From Candidatus Hermodarchaeota archaeon (GTDB taxonomy: Archaea > Asgardarchaeota > Lokiarchaeia > Sigyniarchaeales > SOKP01): a stretch of DNA of 39,756 nucleotides. This document shows, one piece after another, positions 20,340 through 28,235 of this stretch; within the stretch, counting starts at the first letter, position 1, and each line of letters starts with the position of its first letter. The position numbers were made by a program, and so were the translations under genes. The stretch spans positions 1 through 39,756 of the forward strand of contig JBHLLO010000028.1 in NCBI GenBank assembly GCA_048885535.1, given 5' to 3'. The notes below the pieces were generated by a model that saw only the letters and a program-made list of their open reading frames with translations, did not search any database and was not told the origin of the DNA.

Positions 20340-20535
20340 TAAACTTCGAAATTCAGACTATATATATAAATTTGCAAATTTTAAGATTTTTCAGAGAATA
20401 TAATTAAAAGAGATTAATTACATTTGTGATGTTTAAATGTAAATAAAATTTTTCATTTTGGGAGACTATATCTTCCTAAAATAAATTTTTTAATATTTCT
20501 ACTGCTGAAATTCTATTATTTCTAGCTCTTTAGGC

Positions 20536-22104
20536 TTATATTCTTTCGATCATCATTCCACCTAATATTATAGGTCCACCAGTAGAATTATATATTTTTT
20601 CTGCTTTGTTTAATTTTGATTTACTTTCAGAATAAATTCTAAAAACTAGATCTCCTTCCTTGATTCTAGCACCTTGTTTTTTGAAGATTTCAACACCTGA
20701 ACTCTTAGAATGGGGACAACCTGCAGCTTTAGCAATTTGATTTATGATGGCATTATTGACCTCTGTTATGTGTCCCGCTTTTGTGGCAAAAAGGTCCTTA
20801 TTATAAGGTCCAAGCTCTATTTCTTCTGGTTTTATATTAGGATTTCCCCCTTGAGCCTTAATTATTTTTTGCATCTTTTTATAAGCTTTTCCTGACCTTA
20901 AAAGTTCTTTAGCTAATGCTTGACCCTTTCCTTTTTGCGCCTTGCCACCCATTTCAAGTAAAATACCTGCCAATTCAGTTGATTTTTCAATTAATGAGTT
21001 TGGACCCGCTGTATAATCTATTAACAAAGTTAAAGCTTCTTTTGCTTCTATTGCAGGACCAATTGCATGACCAATAGGTTGGTGAGCGAGAGTTAAGGCG
21101 CATTCAGCTTCTATTCCGACATTTTTAGCAATATCTTTAAAAAGATAGGCAAACTTCTTTCCAGCATCTATTGTTGGAAATTTTGTTCCAGTCCCAACAG
21201 GGATATCTAAAACTAAGTTTTTGACCCCAAGAGACAATTTTTTAGTAAGTATTGAAGGAATCATCAGTCCAATAGGGTCCATATGAAGAGGGCGTTCAAT
21301 TTCAATAAGAATATTATCAGCTGGTGAGGTATTCAAAGCTCCACCCCATATTATGCACCCATTCTCTTTGGCAACTATAGTTTTTAACTCTTCAGAATCA
21401 AATGCAACTGGTGCCAATACTTCCATTGAATCTGCTGTTCCTGATGGCGATGTGATTGCCCTAGTAGATGATTTTGGAATTGTTAATCCAGCGGCCGCAA
21501 CAATAGGAACTATAATAAGAGAGACCTTATTTCCTGGGACGCCCCCTTTCAGCAAGATTTACTAAGTGTAAATATCTGTACTGTGTTTATCGTAGACGTC
21601 CATTCCAAAGTAAAAAATATCTCCACTTCTTACCTCTGCTAAGGTCAGAGCAGTCATTTCCTCATTGTCCATTCCATTTATCTGGACTCCAGTTATAAAT
21701 GCAGCTAAATCAATTCGAGATAAAGATCCTGAAACCGCGTCGGAAATAATACTGTTAATTTCTTCATTATTTAACTTACTTCCTCTTATCTTTTTTTGTA
21801 TAAATTTAAAAGATTCAGGTGGATCTGCTGGTTTTACGGAAACAATTGCCCCATCCTTAAGCTCCTTTTTCTCTCTTAAAATATCTAAAAAAATACCTAT
21901 TTCACCAGGTTCTACAATGGAATTTGAATAATCTATTTGTATGATTGCGACCCAAAATTCAGTATCAATTGATTTTGATTCTTTACTTCGAATATATACA
22001 CGTTCGCCTGCTTTTTGACCAAGTTCTTGGGCATCTTTAATATTTAAAACAACATCCTTTGTATTACCTGTTTCGAAATTTATTTTTTTTACCTTGAGCT
22101 TCAT
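20536..22104 (-). CDS. deoA: AMP phosphorylase (thymidine phosphorylase family), 512 aa after removing a 30-nt intron; exons 22104-21578 and 21547-20536
   Basis: Two in-frame ORF pieces end in DKHST and resume at GGVPGNK. IPKSSTRAITSPSGTADSME, WGGALN, LVLDIPVG and QPIGHAIGPAIEA are intact. Confidence 0.9.
21548..21577 (-). other. Putative relaxed BHB/BHL-type mRNA intron, 30 nt, in AMP phosphorylase
   Basis: Minus strand reads CAGT-AC^A-GATATTTAC-ACTTA-GTAAATCTT-GCTG-AA^A-GGGGGCGTCC. Central helix CAGU/GCUG, 3-nt segments ACA and AAA, and an intron hairpin. Excision gives AGT ACA GGG GGC (S-T-G-G). Confidence 0.8.
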
Positions 22105-22225
22105 GATTTAAAATTACCCTTTTGCTATAGAGATATAAGACTGTCAATGTTTATATTTTTAATGTAATGAATAGCTCATCCTTTAAATTAATAAACTTAA
22201 TTAGAAAGTATTAATGATTTGATTT

Positions 22226-23365
22226 ATGAATAAATTTGAAAAAGCACAGAAAGTACTTAATGAACTGGATGCTGATGGATGGTTAATTGTATGTAATGAA
22301 GATACTGATGTTAATTCTAGATTCTTATTGGGAGTTGGATCACACGCACGACATTATGTATATATTTCTGCTGATGGAGATCACAAAGTTATTTCGGTTG
22401 AAATGGAAGCAGCTATGATCGAGCACTCTTTAAAAGAGAAAAATGTAAAATGTGAAGTTTATTTTTACAGATCATTAAAAGAATTAATATCTCTTCTAAC
22501 TCCAATTATTAATAAACCTCGAATTGCTCTTAATTTTGGGGAAAATGTTTTAAAGGAAAATGGTACTCCCTATGCCGATTATATCCGAATTGGGGATTAT
22601 TTTTCATTAAAAGAATTAGCACCTGAAACAGACTTTATATCAGCAGCACCTATAATTTATGAGCTTAGAAGTTCCAAATCTTTAGCAGAATTAAAAGATC
22701 TAAGAAATACATGTAAAGCGACAATAGAGATATTGGAAACTGTTCCAATTTTTGTTAGAGTAGGCATGACTGAAAGGGAAATCAAAGCCAAGATAGAATA
22801 TGAGTATATGAAGTTAGGAAAACCTTCTTTTGAAACCATTGTAGGTTCAGGACCTCATTCAGCAGACCCCCACCATAATAGCTCAAATAAAAAAATTGAA
22901 CCCGGAGTTTTATTAATTGATACCGGATTACAAATCGATGAGATGTGTTCTGATATTACTTGGACATTTTGGGTAGGAAATAAACCCCCAAAAGATTTTC
23001 TAGAAGCCTATCAAGTTCTTTACGATTCAAAGCAAATTGCTCATGAATATTTTTTAGATGGAAATTCAAATTGTTTACCAGCCATAAAATGTCGAGAATT
23101 TTTGGATGAAAAAGGTTATGATCATGAGAAACTCTTTTTTCATGGATTTGGGCATTCCTTGGGTTTTGAAGCTCATGATGTTGGTGCTAGAATATCCTGG
23201 AAAACTCCAGAAACATACACTTTGAAAGAAAATATGGTCTATACAAGTGAGCCTGGTTTGTATTGGAAAGAGAAATGGGGAATTAGATTAGAAGATGATA
23301 TAATTATTGGAAAAGAAAAGTGTGAACAAGTGACTTATAATCCAAGAGAACCTATCTTAATATAA
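22226..23365 (+). CDS. Xaa-Pro peptidase (M24 family)
   Basis: SADPHH, LIDTG, CSDITWT, HGFGHSLGFEAHD, SEPGLY and GIRLEDD metal-ligand motifs. Confidence 0.9.
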   Translation: MNKFEKAQKVLNELDADGWLIVCNEDTDVNSRFLLGVGSHARHYVYISADGDHKVISVEMEAAMIEHSLKEKNVKCEVYFYRSLKELISLLTPIINKPRIALNFGENVLKENGTPYADYIRIGDYFSLKELAPETDFISAAPIIYELRSSKSLAELKDLRNTCKATIEILETVPIFVRVGMTEREIKAKIEYEYMKLGKPSFETIVGSGPHSADPHHNSSNKKIEPGVLLIDTGLQIDEMCSDITWTFWVGNKPPKDFLEAYQVLYDSKQIAHEYFLDGNSNCLPAIKCREFLDEKGYDHEKLFFHGFGHSLGFEAHDVGARISWKTPETYTLKENMVYTSEPGLYWKEKWGIRLEDDIIIGKEKCEQVTYNPREPILI

Positions 23366-23374
23366 TAAGATAAG

Positions 23375-24682
23375 TTAGAGTTTTATTGAAAGAGGGAATT
23401 CTTTAATATCCTCAATTAAATTTTGATCAGGGTCTTTAAACTTAACCAAAATTCTGATTTTGTAATCCCCTGCCTCAAGTGGTTTTAAATTTATCTCCCA
23501 TTTAATTTCTTCATTTGGCCGTAGTGAATATATTTGTTTAGTAGTTGTGCCTCTCATAACCTTTAGTTGTTCTGGAAATTCTGTATCAATGTTTACATCT
23601 AAAGCCTCTCCTTCACTTTGGTTTCTCACTAAAATTTCTAAGGGAAATGTCTGACCTATTAGGGGCGTTCTTAAGTTTTTTGTCGATACTTCTAAAGAAG
23701 GAGGAGGTGAAATTAGGGTTGGTATTATTTTGGCTGTGTTATAAATAAGGATTAAATTGTTATTCAATTCATAAGTTAAAGACAATGGACCAATAAATGG
23801 ATTATCTAGTTGAAAGTGGGGCTTGATTACAAAGTCTAATTCATAAATTTTATCTATTTCCATATCTATTGGAAGTCCTGGTCTTTTACTAGCACTTAGA
23901 TTATCAGATAAGCTAAGATTAAATTTCGTTATGCTGAATTTTTCCAATTTAAGGTTATAAAAAGAGTTTTGAACCACTGAAATCAAAGGTTTTGTATCAA
24001 TTTTTACTTTTAGATTGATTATCTCGTTTGTTGTGTAAATATCTCTATTTAACACTAATTCAGATTTCAAATATAGTTGAATATTTGCCATAAATAAAAT
24101 TTTTTTAATTAATGTTAATTCAGCTTCGGTGAATTTATAATCATGAATGTTTCCTTGAACTTTTTCCAAATACTCGGGATTATTGTCGCGTAATGCAATT
24201 GTTAAATCTGTGACTAAGATTATTAAATTACTTTCTTTAAAGTAAGAACTCTCAATTTTGTTTTGCACTTTTTTAATAAAATTTAAACCCTCATCTTGCC
24301 TTGCTTTAGTAAATAAGCATAAGTAGGACAATACAGAGAATAAAACATATTGGGTGTTACGATCTGCTTGACTTTTTAATTTCGGGATAAAATCAACAGC
24401 TTTTCTAAATATTGTATCTGCTTCTTTATACTCTTCATTTAATATAGATGAATCACCTGCCATCCTTAACAATTCTAAACCAGATTGAACTTTATCCAAT
24501 TCAAAAAATGCATTTGTTCCATTTATAAAGCTAATTCTAGCTTGTTCATAATTTTCTAGCTTTAAATATGTCTGACCAGCAGTATTGTATTTCTTAGCCG
24601 ACTTTTTAAATTGTTTGGCTTTAAATAATTGTTCTGCCTTTAAAAATTGATTTTCAGCATCTTTAAGTAAATCTTTGCCCAT
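23375..24682 (-). CDS. TPR/SNAP-like helical N-terminus plus two Ig-like domains
   Basis: AEQLFKAKQFKKSAKKYNTAGQTY-type helical repeats. C-terminal beta-sandwich pattern GQTFPLEILVRN...LRPNEEIKWEINLKPLEAGDY. Confidence 0.55.
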   Translation of the reverse strand: MGKDLLKDAENQFLKAEQLFKAKQFKKSAKKYNTAGQTYLKLENYEQARISFINGTNAFFELDKVQSGLELLRMAGDSSILNEEYKEADTIFRKAVDFIPKLKSQADRNTQYVLFSVLSYLCLFTKARQDEGLNFIKKVQNKIESSYFKESNLIILVTDLTIALRDNNPEYLEKVQGNIHDYKFTEAELTLIKKILFMANIQLYLKSELVLNRDIYTTNEIINLKVKIDTKPLISVVQNSFYNLKLEKFSITKFNLSLSDNLSASKRPGLPIDMEIDKIYELDFVIKPHFQLDNPFIGPLSLTYELNNNLILIYNTAKIIPTLISPPPSLEVSTKNLRTPLIGQTFPLEILVRNQSEGEALDVNIDTEFPEQLKVMRGTTTKQIYSLRPNEEIKWEINLKPLEAGDYKIRILVKFKDPDQNLIEDIKEFPLSIKL

Positions 24683-24819
24683 TTAAAATTCACATTAATC
24701 TAATTTAATATTTCTATAAATTAATTTAAAAATTAAAAATTACGTGAAATAATCTTGTTTTTATTTAAATTGAAATTAAAAAAGGAAAAAAAATAAAAAT
24801 TATTGATTTGAATAACGAT

Positions 24820-25515
24820 TTAATAATCCATTACTATAAGTAGGAAGGCAATTAAAATTAGTATTCCTCCAAATCCTGCAACCAGAGCACCAAGAGTGAA
24901 CCAGGATATCCATGTAAAGATAACAAAACCAACTAATAGTACGAACCACCATGAATAATCAAAGATTTTAAAGTTGACAAGGTCAAAAATTACTAGTATA
25001 AAAATAACGATTAAAGCCAAGCCGAAGACAGCATTAACAACAAAAAGTGGAAAGCTGGTTAAAATTAATAATACGCATTCATAAGCTGCAAAGGCACAAC
25101 CTGCAAGTGCTACCATTTTAGAGACTTTATAAGCTTTTTTTGCAGTAACTAGTTCTATGATAAATGCCATTAAAAGTAACACAGCTGGGAAATAAACATT
25201 CGGAAAATAACCATATATTCCTCCAATATTCGCAATAAATAGGGTACTAACGTATACGATTAAGACTAGAACTGCACCATAGATAAGTAGCATCCACCAA
25301 GTATAGGGAATTTTAAATTTCCCAAGACTTATTAATCCTAATGAAACAAATATCAAGAATGCAATGACTAAACAGATTATTCCCCAGAGGACATATAAGC
25401 CTGTAGCAATTGTAACCCCATAAAAGTATGCAATTCCAAGTGAAAGTGTAAATAACATTCCAATAAAGGCAATCACTTTTGACGCTGTCATCTTTTCTTT
25501 GGGAGCTTCCGCCAT
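24820..25515 (-). CDS. Integral membrane protein (about 8 TM) built from two repeated halves
   Basis: Mostly hydrophobic. The halves KVIAFIG...IPYTWWMLLIYG and KMVALAG...FDYSWWFVLLVG resemble each other. Confidence 0.7.
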   Translation of the reverse strand: MAEAPKEKMTASKVIAFIGMLFTLSLGIAYFYGVTIATGLYVLWGIICLVIAFLIFVSLGLISLGKFKIPYTWWMLLIYGAVLVLIVYVSTLFIANIGGIYGYFPNVYFPAVLLLMAFIIELVTAKKAYKVSKMVALAGCAFAAYECVLLILTSFPLFVVNAVFGLALIVIFILVIFDLVNFKIFDYSWWFVLLVGFVIFTWISWFTLGALVAGFGGILILIAFLLIVMDY

Positions 25516-25692
25516 TTTTTATCACATAAATTTATTTTTTTTAAACTTGCTTTTAATTTCAAATGAAACTAAAATTAGGATTAATCTAGAATCACAAGTT
25601 TAAAAAGCTTTACCAATTCTTTATTATATTATTAATAGGATTTTAAACTTGAAATTAAAAAATCAAAACAATGAATTTTTCGTAAAAATTTT

Positions 25693-25731
25693 GTAGATCC
25701 GAAACCATTGCTTTATGGTTTGTCATCTTAC
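25693..25731 (-). promoter_or_regulatory. Eukaryote-like SECIS element in the 3' UTR of hdrA-mvhD
   Basis: Minus strand GUAAG-AUGAC-AAACCAU-AAAGCA-AUGGUUU-C-GGAU-CUAC: AUGA/GA non-Watson-Crick core, 7-bp upper stem and AAA-led loop, located just after genes with four in-frame UGAs. Confidence 0.75.
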
Positions 25732-25755
25732 GACTAAATTTTTTTCTCGTAAGAT

Positions 25756-26245
25756 TCATTCTTTCGGCTTTTTTTCTTTTTCTATTTCTTCTAAATTTAG
25801 AGATTCTTTTATTGGATTTTTACCAAGTTTTTCTATTATTTCAGATACTCTTATAACTTGTTCTTGGAATTTTTGACCTTCAGCAGCACTACAATGAAAT
25901 ATTTGTATTCTATCTGGAGAAATTCCTGCTGCTTTTAGGACTTCTTGAGTGTATTTAACATTTCTAGCAGCAACTAAGTTTCCTGTCTCATAGTCACATT
26001 CCCCTTCATATCATCCAGCTACAATTACTCCATCGGCACCTTTTCCGATTGCTCTCATCATAAGACTGGGTGTTACTCTACCAGTACAATTAATCCTAAT
26101 AGGTCTTATTGTTGCGGGGTATTGAGCGCGAATTGTACCCATCGTATTTCTGTTTACGATAAATTGTACCCGCCATATCCCCCGCTCCATAACCTCATTT
26201 CCAGCACATAAAGGCTAGAATCTTAATATTATTTTTAATCGACAA
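25756..26245 (-). CDS. mvhD: Selenoprotein MvhD/VhuD (methyl-viologen-reducing hydrogenase delta subunit), 152 aa; Sec17 and Sec68; exons 26245-26164 and 26132-25756
   Basis: Absent from the ORF track. GAGGTGA RBS then TTG at 26245. Spliced translation reads AFMCWKUGYGAGDMAGTIRAQYPATIRPIRINCTGRV...GADGVIVAGUYEGECDYETGN...SAAEGQKF. UGA codons at 26195-26197 and 26011-26013. Confidence 0.9.
26133..26163 (-). other. Putative canonical BHB mRNA intron, 31 nt, in mvhD
   Basis: Minus strand reads GCGG-GTAC-AA^T-TTATCGTA-AACAGAAA-TACGATGG-GTAC-AA^T-TCGC. Exon stem GCGG/UCGC, central helix GUAC/GUAC, two AAU bulges and an 8-bp intron stem. Excision restores A-G-T-I-R-A-Q-Y-P. Confidence 0.82.
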
Positions 26246-26258
26246 TTATTTCACCTCT

Positions 26259-28235
26259 CTATATCTCCTCTAGGATTGCATCAATCTGTTTCTCATATTG
26301 GGGCTCACGATAGTATCTTAAAGTAATTGCTTCAGAAGGACAATTGGCTAGACATGAACCACATCCTCTACATAATATTTCATTCACTTCAGCGCCGTCG
26401 AGTTCAATTTTAATTGCTTCATATGGACAGTTTAGTTCACATAATCCACATTTTGCACATTTTTCTTTCTCAACGTTCGCTCTAATTAAAAGAATTCGGT
26501 ATTTATCTTTACTCATAAGTCGTGCTAAAGATGACGCGGCAGCTCTTCCTTGGGCAATAGATTCTGCAATAGATTTAGGTCCTTGGCTCACACCAGCAAG
26601 AACAATTCCAGGGATTTTAGTATCTATTGGATTTAATCTTGAATGAAATTCCTTGAAAAATCCATCCTGACTTGTTTCAAGTTTCAGTATTTTTTGAATT
26701 TTATCAATACCTTTTGGAGGAACCATTGCACAAGATAATATAACTAAGTCATATTCGAATTCTTTTAGTTTTATTGTACCAAGAGTATTCTGGAGGATTA
26801 CTTTGAGATTATGAGTCTCAGGATCTTCATGTATTTTTGATATATTCGTTCTTACATACTTAATACCTTCTTTTCTTGAAGCTGTAAAATACTCTTCATA
26901 GTCTTTTCCAGCTGCACGAATGTCCATATATGCTACAGTTATATCTATTTCAGGGTCATGTTGTTTTATGAGTTTAGTGTTTTTAATAGAAATCATACAA
27001 CATACTCCTGCACTACAATAGGTTTGTTTTGTTAGATCTCTAGAGCCAACACATTGTATAACAAGTACATTCTTCGGCTTCTTTCCATCGGATGGTCTTA
27101 CAAGGTGACCTATAGTAGGTCCGTTTGGAGCTAGCATCCTTTCAAGTTTTAGTTGTGTTATAACATTAGGATAAACATTGTAACCTAAATAACCTGTTTC
27201 AGGTTCATATTCATCCCACCCGGTTGCAACGATTATAGAACCTACTTCAATTTCAATTATCTCATCTTCTTGATCAAAATCAATCGCTTCCAGCTCACAT
27301 GCTTTTTGGCATAGTCCACATTTAATACACCTTGACATATCAATCTGAGCTAACGAGGGAACAGCTTGAGCAAAAGATGAATAAATTGCTGTTCTTGGAT
27401 TCATTCCTTCGTTAAATTCATCATATCCGTATGCAGGACATACTTCAAAGCAGGAACCGCATCCATTACAATCATTATTTACATATCTCGCCTTTTTCCG
27501 AATTTTAACCTTGAAATTTCCAACAAATCCGGTTATATCTTCAATTTCACTGTAAGTATATAAATTCATACCAGGAGTCCTTGCTGATTGTAGCATAACG
27601 GGTCCTAATATTCAGATACTACAATCATCTGTGGGGAATGTTCGATCAAGCATTGCCATTTTTCCTCCTATGGTTGGGCTTTTTTCTACAAGGAATACTT
27701 CAAAGCCCTCTTCTGCAAGATCTATTCCAGCGCTTAATCCAGCTACTCCACCTCCAATAATTAGAGCCTTCTTAGTAATATCTACTTCTTTTACCAAAAT
27801 CTTTTCTAATACTTCTGCTCTGGCAACTCCCGATCTTATTGCATCTTCAGCTGTTTTTTGTGCACCCTGTTTATCATTTCTATGAACAAAGCTTGAATGT
27901 TCACGTATATTTACAAACTCCAAATATGATGCATCTAATCCCATCGATTCTAGTACACTTTTAAATACTGGTTCATGAGTTTTAGGAGTACAGGATGCTA
28001 CAACAAGTCTATTCGCGTTGGCTTCAAGCATTTTTTCTTTTATAAATTCAGCTCCAGGCTCAGTACATAAGGAGATATAATCTAGTGCCTCAACTACATT
28101 AGGTAATTTTTTTGAGTATTCAGCTAAGGCTTTTGTATCAATTATTTCAGCAACATTAATACCTCATTGACAGATAGCAACAAATATTCTAATTTCTTCA
28201 ATAGATTTTTTCTCTTTAGTCTGTGTCTCTACCAT
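26259..28235 (-). CDS. hdrA: Selenoprotein heterodisulfide reductase subunit A, 658 aa; Sec24 and Sec208
   Basis: One continuous frame from ATG 28235 through ICQUGINV (TGA 28164-28166), ASCTPKTHE, GGGVAG, TFPTDDCSIUILGP (TGA 27612-27614), ferredoxin CxxCxxC motifs and QCVGSRD...YCSAGVCC. Confidence 0.93.

Follow-up and report, generated by a model that had tools for sequence, protein, structure and literature searches.

Insertions of about 30 nt in AMP phosphorylase, mvhD and other protein-coding genes of Loki-type Asgard archaea are probably spliced bulge-helix-bulge mini-introns

The window analysed here, a contig of 39,756 nt from Candidatus Hermodarchaeota archaeon (JBHLLO010000028.1, assembly GCA_048885535.1), carries two genes, AMP phosphorylase (AMPase) and mvhD/vhuD, whose coding sequences are interrupted by insertions of 30 and 31 nt, respectively. 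We consider it very likely, from the layout of the insertions and from comparison with relatives, that both are real mRNA mini-introns of the bulge-helix-bulge (BHB) type, cut by the splicing endonuclease EndA and ligated by RtcB. Judged by the same comparisons, they belong to a population of predicted mini-introns of 29-33 nt that occupy unrelated protein genes as well as tRNA genes in this family of Promethearchaeia (Loki-type Asgard archaea) and that appear to be gained and lost between species. The finding thereby grows beyond the two sites: the data support a class of mRNA mini-introns found across the lineage, very probably few in any one genome and with fast turnover.

In archaeal pre-tRNAs, each half of the BHB has a 4-nt helix strand with a 3-nt bulge immediately 3' of it, and the RNA is cut after bulge nucleotide 2. 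The description of the motif given in a 2026 census of tRNA introns agrees with this layout (bioRxiv 10.64898/2026.10.13.758758). The AMPase gene, on the minus strand, is split into two open reading frames (ORFs) of 180 aa (22104..21562) and 339 aa (21555..20536), and the coordinates of the NCBIfam profile TIGR03327 are contiguous across the break: positions 1-165 match exon 1 (21578..22104, 175 codons plus 2 nt) and positions 167-500 match exon 2 (20536..21547, including the stop codon; E = 2.5e-135). Between them lie 30 nt (21548..21577) with an in-frame TAG and TAA, delimited by the gap in orthologs and by the BHB layout; deleting minus-strand 21577..21548 yields a 512-aa AMPase that reads ...DKHSTGGVPGNK.... 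Family and protein searches across 40 relatives found an AMPase ortholog free of internal stops in 22 of 24 same-genus genomes, which the copy described here exceeds by 30 nt. When the loci with BLAST hits on both flanks (18 of the relatives' 29 AMPase loci, and 19 of 29 for mvhD) were aligned with MAFFT, the gap measured exactly 30 nt in 18/18 same-genus AMPase loci. The exon strand of the AMPase central helix, CAGT (21580..21583), is followed by the bulge AC|A (21579-21577), and the intron strand, GCTG (21550..21553), by the bulge AA|A (21549-21547), giving three Watson-Crick pairs and one G-U pair; the inner stem h' has 8 of 9 positions paired and closes a 5-nt loop, ACTTA.

The mvhD/vhuD gene, also on the minus strand and located downstream of hdrA, shows the same arrangement in canonical hBHBh' form. 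Exon 1 runs from a TTG start at 26245 (26164..26245) and matches positions 3-22 of the VhuD profile NF045873, which continues at positions 24-131 in exon 2 (25756..26132, stop TGA 25758-25756; Pfam FlpD PF02662 positions 21-123). The frameshifting 31-nt intron (26133..26163) again coincides with a gap in orthologs: syntenic copies with 73-88% identity occur in 19 same-genus genomes, and the gap is exactly 31 nt in all 19 aligned loci. Both strands of the central helix read GTAC (exon strand 26166..26169, intron strand 26135..26138), are joined by four Watson-Crick pairs and are followed by AA|T bulges (26165-26163 and 26134-26132); the inner stem h' is 8 bp and the outer helix h 4 bp. Deletion of minus-strand 26163..26133 gives a protein reading ...GAGDMAGTIRAQYP..., which includes AGTIRAQYP. 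The sequence-only reading had claimed that each gene holds an insertion of 30-31 nt and that cutting after the second bulge nucleotide, as EndA does, restores the expected protein. Both claims hold: the cut sites of the BHB are the alignment-defined boundaries of the insertion in AMPase and in mvhD alike.

The mvhD intron is flanked by a perfect 10-nt direct repeat, GGGTACAATT, with copies at 26172-26163 and 26141-26132 (minus strand), and the 21 nt between the copies form a hairpin with a 6-bp stem, an 8-nt loop and one nucleotide on each side. A duplication holding a palindromic tetramer would make a BHB automatically, which hints at one route of intron gain at this gene. No direct repeat of this type was found at the AMPase intron, whose insert is flanked by no duplication, or at the RagA-like intron described below.

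The genome is a fragmented metagenome bin of 112 contigs, and the insertions could in principle be assembly or binning artefacts missing from the organism's DNA. Per-run contigs, however, bridge both insertions with zero mismatches, that of AMPase in runs X1, X2 and X4 and that of mvhD in X1, X2 and X5, where X5 belongs to a second study, and comparable insertions recur across many genomes that were assembled separately. Intron-less forms in the sequencing runs belong to more divergent co-occurring relatives. The insertions, whose exposure as artefacts by DNA reads had been named as a refuting outcome, are borne out in three runs each and thus have a practically negligible chance of being artefactual.

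Apart from the insertions, neither gene shows the damage expected of a decaying one, as the sequence-only reading had stated: the spliced translations are intact and the profiles contiguous. Two in-frame TGA codons in mvhD, in the contexts CWK-U-GY (26197-26195, exon 1) and VAG-U-YEGEC (26013-26011, exon 2; both minus strand), fall where VhuD-type proteins have Cys or Sec, and that of exon 2 is kept in 19/19 of the close orthologs listed (73-88% identity). We read them as probable selenocysteine codons rather than as decay. As a separate observation, the frame of hdrA is open upstream of its listed ORF via two TGAs, 28166-28164 and 27614-27612 (minus strand; AICQ-U-GIN and DCSI-U-ILGP), so that the hdrA-mvhD pair reads as a putative selenoprotein cluster. 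In the 3' untranslated region of mvhD (25755-25640, minus strand), a hairpin, CUUACGAG...CUCGUAAG, stands directly after the stop codon and is followed by a second long stem; the two stems are possible selenocysteine insertion sequence elements, without a match in Rfam at gathering thresholds. Indeed, neither Rfam at those thresholds nor ARAGORN gave a match anywhere in the window. Group I and group II self-splicing introns were rejected, the inserts being 30 and 31 nt against a core of hundreds of nucleotides and without an Rfam match at the same thresholds.

Further insertions were sought by comparison with a same-genus relative, G018, of which 2.285 Mb, or 60% of the genome, was used. Stop-to-stop ORFs of the present genome were screened against those of G018, yielding 224 adjacent colinear ORF pairs, 14 of them with unexplained extra DNA. 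Three clean pairs carry exactly 30 extra nt each: AMPase, a Gtr1/RagA-like small GTPase (contig C7) and a coiled-coil CPMC protein (contig C18). With an exon 1 of 27 codons and its Sec codons, mvhD escaped this protein-based screen. A DNA alignment with G018 (1.72 Mb at ~80% identity) recovered mvhD together with the RagA-like intron and the C18 insertion. In this alignment the distribution of indel lengths has a shoulder at 29-33 nt (7, 4, 10, 6 and 5 cases), followed by one case at 34 nt. In all, homology screening of the 1.72 Mb aligned with that 60% of G018 found four interrupted genes in this genome, AMPase and mvhD included. The earlier expectation of many such introns genome-wide was therefore overstated; we estimate a handful per genome, and the two within 5 kb are a local cluster.

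The RagA-like intron has a perfect central helix, CTCA/TGAG, with bulges AC|T and AA|G, and its BHB is also the minimum-free-energy (MFE) fold; a stop codon sits directly after the last exon codon, and the insert has no duplication around it. It occurs at the same site in three species (this genome, G045 and G054), with five differing positions that include one compensatory change of a hairpin pair from C-G to T-A. Between this genome and G045, the 317 codons of the exons show 114 synonymous-only and 39 nonsynonymous differences, a pattern indicating that they are under purifying selection. The insertion in C18 (15021-15050, plus strand) is 30 nt long, contains an in-frame TAG and lies in a coiled-coil/zinc-ribbon gene with a C-terminal CPMC motif, which the predicted cut sites would restore. 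Its geometry, 1+9+5+9+4+2, is that of the other introns, and its MFE fold consists of an outer helix, a 7x7 internal loop and an inner hairpin. Among 33 genus genomes with a match, it is found in this genome only; either its degenerate helix is tolerated by EndA or the gene is broken.

A number of candidates were set aside. A scan for BHB motifs across the whole genome, combined with ORF merging, produced 2.6 million raw motifs; the 13,475 ORF-merging candidates were mostly ordinary gene boundaries in a genome of 30% GC, and the approach was dropped in favour of homology-based detection. Split-gene pairs on C50, C17, C66, C11 and C58 of this genome proved on alignment to be paralog or intergenic noise, and those on C4, C52, C92 and C97, together with ten in the reverse screen, were weak or paralog matches by their BLAST rows. 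Of the 34 indels of 28-34 nt against G018, those outside mRNA and tRNA introns were AT-rich intergenic, N-terminal or upstream, or in-frame and stop-free, and were left uncounted (including C5:3376, C8:62122, C57:8740, C55:17906 and C61:3241 here, and C13:115930, C10:37855 and C17:381362 in G018). One of these, a 32-nt insertion at C8:62122-62153 outside long ORFs, has a BHB-like layout (GACG/CGTT) and might lie in a non-coding RNA. At 172 gap sites of at least 4 aa in protein alignments with G018, no in-frame, stop-free insertion had a convincing BHB at its boundaries, so the screens mostly see frame-breaking introns.

The tRNA genes of the organism hold introns of the same size class. Aragorn predicts introns in 23/34 tRNA genes of this genome, a sign that the splicing system is heavily used. 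Introns of 31-32 nt in the T-arm (T-loop) differ in presence between this genome (C8:148-178) and G018 (C19:7074, C19:8437 and C7:5019), and they contribute to the 29-33 nt class of indels.

The reverse screen, run on the same 60% of the G018 genome, revealed three introns there, whose central helices are all 4/4 in the register set by the alignment: 33 nt in archaeal elongation factor 1-alpha (aEF-1alpha), within GHIDHG|KST (ATGG/CCAT); 33 nt in a gene of the acyl-CoA dehydrogenase family (AGGT/GCTT); and 30 nt in a gene for an unknown 255-aa protein (TTAT/ATAA, inner stem 10/10). The homolog of the last in the present genome (L003, C2:47938-48702) lies ~340 nt upstream of RtcB (C2:49044), an adjacency that may be a coincidence.

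The aEF-1alpha gene proved the most informative. At E <= 1e-60 it has a single match per genome in 38 of 42 genus genomes; the matches are interrupted by an internal TAG and TAA in three genomes and cut N-terminally in three. Across the order, a match was obtained in 140 of 154 genomes, and nine further regions that looked interrupted or N-terminally cut were examined, eight from outside the genus and one with a match starting at profile position 10. In total, 13/140 genomes of the order carry an aEF-1alpha intron of 29-33 nt among the codons for HLNLVIIGHIDHGKST; the five insertion positions fall within about 40 nt. Site A (ATGG/CCAT) is occupied in nine genomes of three genera, while sites B (GGAC/GTTC), C (ATTG/CAAT), D (CTTG/CAAG) and E (CTTG/CAAG) are each occupied in one, namely G015, G080, G106 and G067. 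Searched blind (H 4/4, L 26-39, either strand), all 13 genomes gave exactly one BHB solution that restores GHIDHGKST. At site A, the H/H' pair is constant as ATGG/CCAT, with H' complementary to the exon, and the hairpin sequences differ between genomes. In these and the RagA-like sister introns, BHB structure is kept while sequence changes; the introns of the window are each confined to a single species. Two other aEF-1alpha genes stand apart: that of G103 (C107:20216-21535) has two internal TAA stops, a span ~30 nt too long and an N-terminal region without an intron, and that of G112 (C25:38063-39331) has one internal TGA. They probably represent further intron positions deeper in the gene.

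As to chance occurrence of the motif, sites drawn at random from this genome have a 4/4 central helix with P = 0.0255, and one combined with at least 7/10 inner pairs with P = 0.0014. Eight independent insertion events were scored: AMPase, mvhD, the RagA-like and coiled-coil genes, EF-1alpha sites A and B, acyl-CoA dehydrogenase and the unknown 255-aa protein. In 7/8 of them, the register that gives back the protein has a 4/4 central helix and 3-nt bulges; the binomial probability of at least 7/8 is 7e-7 even at p0 = 0.1, a value set to allow for sliding registers.

Several observations weigh against splicing. The folds in the window are less than ideal: the claim of a 4-bp helix with 3-nt bulges stands for both genes, but the motif in AMPase lacks an outer helix h next to it and is, for that reason, of the relaxed HBh' form, and at neither gene is the BHB the MFE fold (-9.1 against an unconstrained -11.8 kcal/mol for AMPase, -12.9 against -15.0 kcal/mol for mvhD). 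The AMPase region shows no significant gain in stability over shuffled sequences (z = -1.38); the z-score of the mvhD region is -3.17. The central helix of C18, GCCC versus GAGA, has only 2/4 pairs. No RNA run was listed as holding the region 20400-26400, so that splicing, with its cut sites, junctions and circular introns, is a prediction from DNA, and every genome used is a metagenome bin. Transcription and translation are coupled in archaea, so that unspliced mRNA would yield truncated proteins. As to the energies, the BHB is the unconstrained MFE in 4/10 canonical introns folded (RagA-like, and EF-1alpha of G018, G043 and G015); since it lies above the MFE in the window, folding energy alone would not single out both sites, and the argument rests on register and comparison.

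The imperfect folds, and the lack of a proper central helix in C18, would fit with the insertions being inactivating lesions, with AMPase and mvhD being young pseudogenes hit by small hairpin insertions and the BHB-like fold incidental. Both insertions are species-specific, which would have left little time for further decay. Against this, neither gene of the window shows other damage, the BHB is at the exact register in 7/8 events, and the RagA-like exons remain open, with synonymous changes exceeding nonsynonymous ones by 114:39, in species that have the intron in common. The same class of insertion also occurs in aEF-1alpha at five positions in 13 genomes. This gene is essential and has one match per genome, which makes it implausible that 13 genomes hold it as a pseudogene. 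The comparative data from aEF-1alpha and from relatives' genes make splicing much more likely than decay, and we judge the pseudogene explanation highly unlikely.

Decoding rather than RNA cleavage could also account for an intact product. In phage T4 gene 60, ribosomes bypass a short hairpin gap that contains an early stop codon, a process that needs matched take-off and landing codons. The genes described here likewise contain a short, presumably untranslated hairpin gap with an early stop inside coding sequence, and ribosomes might hop over the ~30 nt while the RNA stays uncut. The repeat GGGTACAATT would supply identical take-off and landing codons around the mvhD hairpin, and the stop codon directly after the last RagA-like exon codon recalls the same arrangement. 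Unlike in gene 60, however, matching codons are present only in mvhD and are missing at the AMPase, RagA-like and EF-1alpha introns. Bypassing, moreover, predicts neither a 4-bp helix joining exon 1 to the 3' end of the intron nor the fixed 3-nt bulges seen in 7/8 events and in 13/13 EF-1alpha introns, and insertions of the same size class reside in tRNA genes. It is, in our view, a very improbable explanation.

Alternatively, a tiny mobile element, similar to a miniature inverted-repeat transposable element with target-site duplication, might have landed in these genes and be tolerated by means other than EndA splicing. In its favour are the mvhD insert, which can be described as a 21-nt perfect hairpin plus a 10-nt target duplication, and the 29-33 nt shoulder of indel lengths against G018. 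The AMPase and RagA-like inserts are without a duplication, however, and the introns are single-copy: each yields one full-length match in its own genome, namely itself, and searches for intron copies or inter-intron homology gave only self matches and chance matches of at most 16 nt, introns of different genes sharing no more than 7-11 nt. Such an element could explain the arrival of the insertions but not the continued function of an interrupted EF-1alpha, and we regard it as quite unlikely.

The splicing reading is consistent with the enzymes that the organism encodes. Two EndA paralogs (contigs C6 and C1) and RtcB are present in the genome, the sequence-only reading having asked which EndA type and whether RtcB occur. 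For one paralog, the nearest structures are the B chains of 3p1z, 3ajv and 2zyz, heterotetrameric crenarchaeal entries in which we take chain B to be the catalytic subunit; the other, read by eye, has both domains and is without the triad histidine. EndA here is thus apparently a two-paralog (alpha-beta)2 enzyme. Asgard EndA has been described as (alpha-beta)2, with an L1 loop that gives broad specificity (PMC5829648). The assignment of the host to Asgard archaea agrees with EF-1alpha, whose closest named relatives, at 81-90% identity, are mostly metagenome-assembled genomes labelled 'Promethearchaeota/Promethearchaeia archaeon'.

In the mechanism that we propose, the pre-mRNA would fold locally, such that the last six nucleotides of exon 1 and the last six of the intron each provide a 4-nt helix strand and then a 3-nt bulge, and an intron-internal hairpin of 8-9 bp would keep the two halves in register. 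After cleavage by EndA, RtcB would ligate the exons and restore the frame, and the intron would probably be circularised. We infer cleavage, ligation and the fate of the intron.

A precedent exists in archaea. A BHB intron is said to have been described by Watanabe in 2002 and Yoshinari in 2006 in the pre-mRNA of cbf5, a pseudouridine synthase gene of Crenarchaeota. The same crenarchaeal intron figures in Yokobori 2009 (PMC2738675). A search of full-text literature, with subscription journals and supplementary files outside its scope, found no archaeal mRNA BHB intron other than that of cbf5, in line with the sequence-only reading, which names it as the main precedent. The similarities are close: a short BHB intron in a protein gene, a hetero-oligomeric EndA, and gain and loss among related species. 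Cbf5 splicing, however, has been demonstrated experimentally, while here it is predicted from DNA, and that intron concerns one gene in thermophilic Crenarchaeota, whereas the introns described here lie in several unrelated genes of Asgard archaea, are uniformly 29-33 nt and occupy five positions in aEF-1alpha alone. The cbf5 gene of the present genome (TIGR00425) is itself uninterrupted, matching positions 5-319 with no stops.

Non-canonical BHB introns have likewise been reported in Asgard tRNA genes (PMC11291895; bioRxiv 10.64898/2026.10.13.758758). In the portions of these reports at hand, the motif, the presumed enzymes and repeated lineage-specific gains resemble the situation described here, and the hosts are tRNAs, with no mention there of protein-coding hosts. 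A difference from tRNA introns is that the exon half of an mRNA motif must be built of coding sequence. In eukaryotes, IRE1 cleaves the mRNA of XBP1/HAC1 at paired stem-loop sites, the XBP1 intron is 26 nt long, an RtcB-type ligase joins the ends in animals and the reading frame is changed. Unconventional splicing by IRE1/RtcB is named in PMC13149111. The introns described here share with XBP1/HAC1 a short mRNA intron, a protein endonuclease and, with the animal system, RtcB-type ligation, and differ in that the XBP1/HAC1 endonuclease is IRE1, the recognition motif is another, and splicing there is regulatory and stress-induced, with no sign of regulation here.

A multi-pass membrane protein gene (24823-25518, minus strand) sits between the two intron-bearing genes of the window. 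Compared with two relatives, it has an in-frame insertion of 5-9 aa, ANIGGIYGY, with no convincing BHB at its boundaries.

For annotation, the consequence is that such genes are called split or pseudogenes and N-terminal exons, some as short as 20-27 codons, are lost; metabolic reconstructions are distorted as a result, with AMP phosphorylase, Hdr/Mvh and EF-1alpha scored as broken. For RNA biology, interrupted archaeal mRNAs had so far meant little beyond cbf5, and the same chemistry apparently serves unrelated genes, including aEF-1alpha, in the lineage most used for reasoning on the origin of eukaryotic gene structure. The five aEF-1alpha positions and the many independent insertions also amount to a natural experiment on where and how BHB introns are gained, a question that the 2026 tRNA census names as unresolved (bioRxiv 10.64898/2026.10.13.758758).

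A broader possibility, which we put forward tentatively and hold to be somewhat doubtful, is that Promethearchaeia have protein-enzyme mRNA splicing with ongoing intron gain. One process would seed BHB mini-introns of ~30 nt in tRNA and protein genes wherever the exon supplies half of the motif, removal by EndA and RtcB would let the introns persist, and some would be recruited to gate key genes. Candidate routes of gain are reverse splicing by EndA/RtcB with reverse transcription, or insertion of a hairpin with a short duplication, as the mvhD repeat recalls. By analogy with the gating of XBP1 by IRE1/RtcB, introns may gate the expression of aEF-1alpha. If this were true, the spread of introns and the splicing of mRNA could be watched in living members of the prokaryotic lineage closest to eukaryotes.

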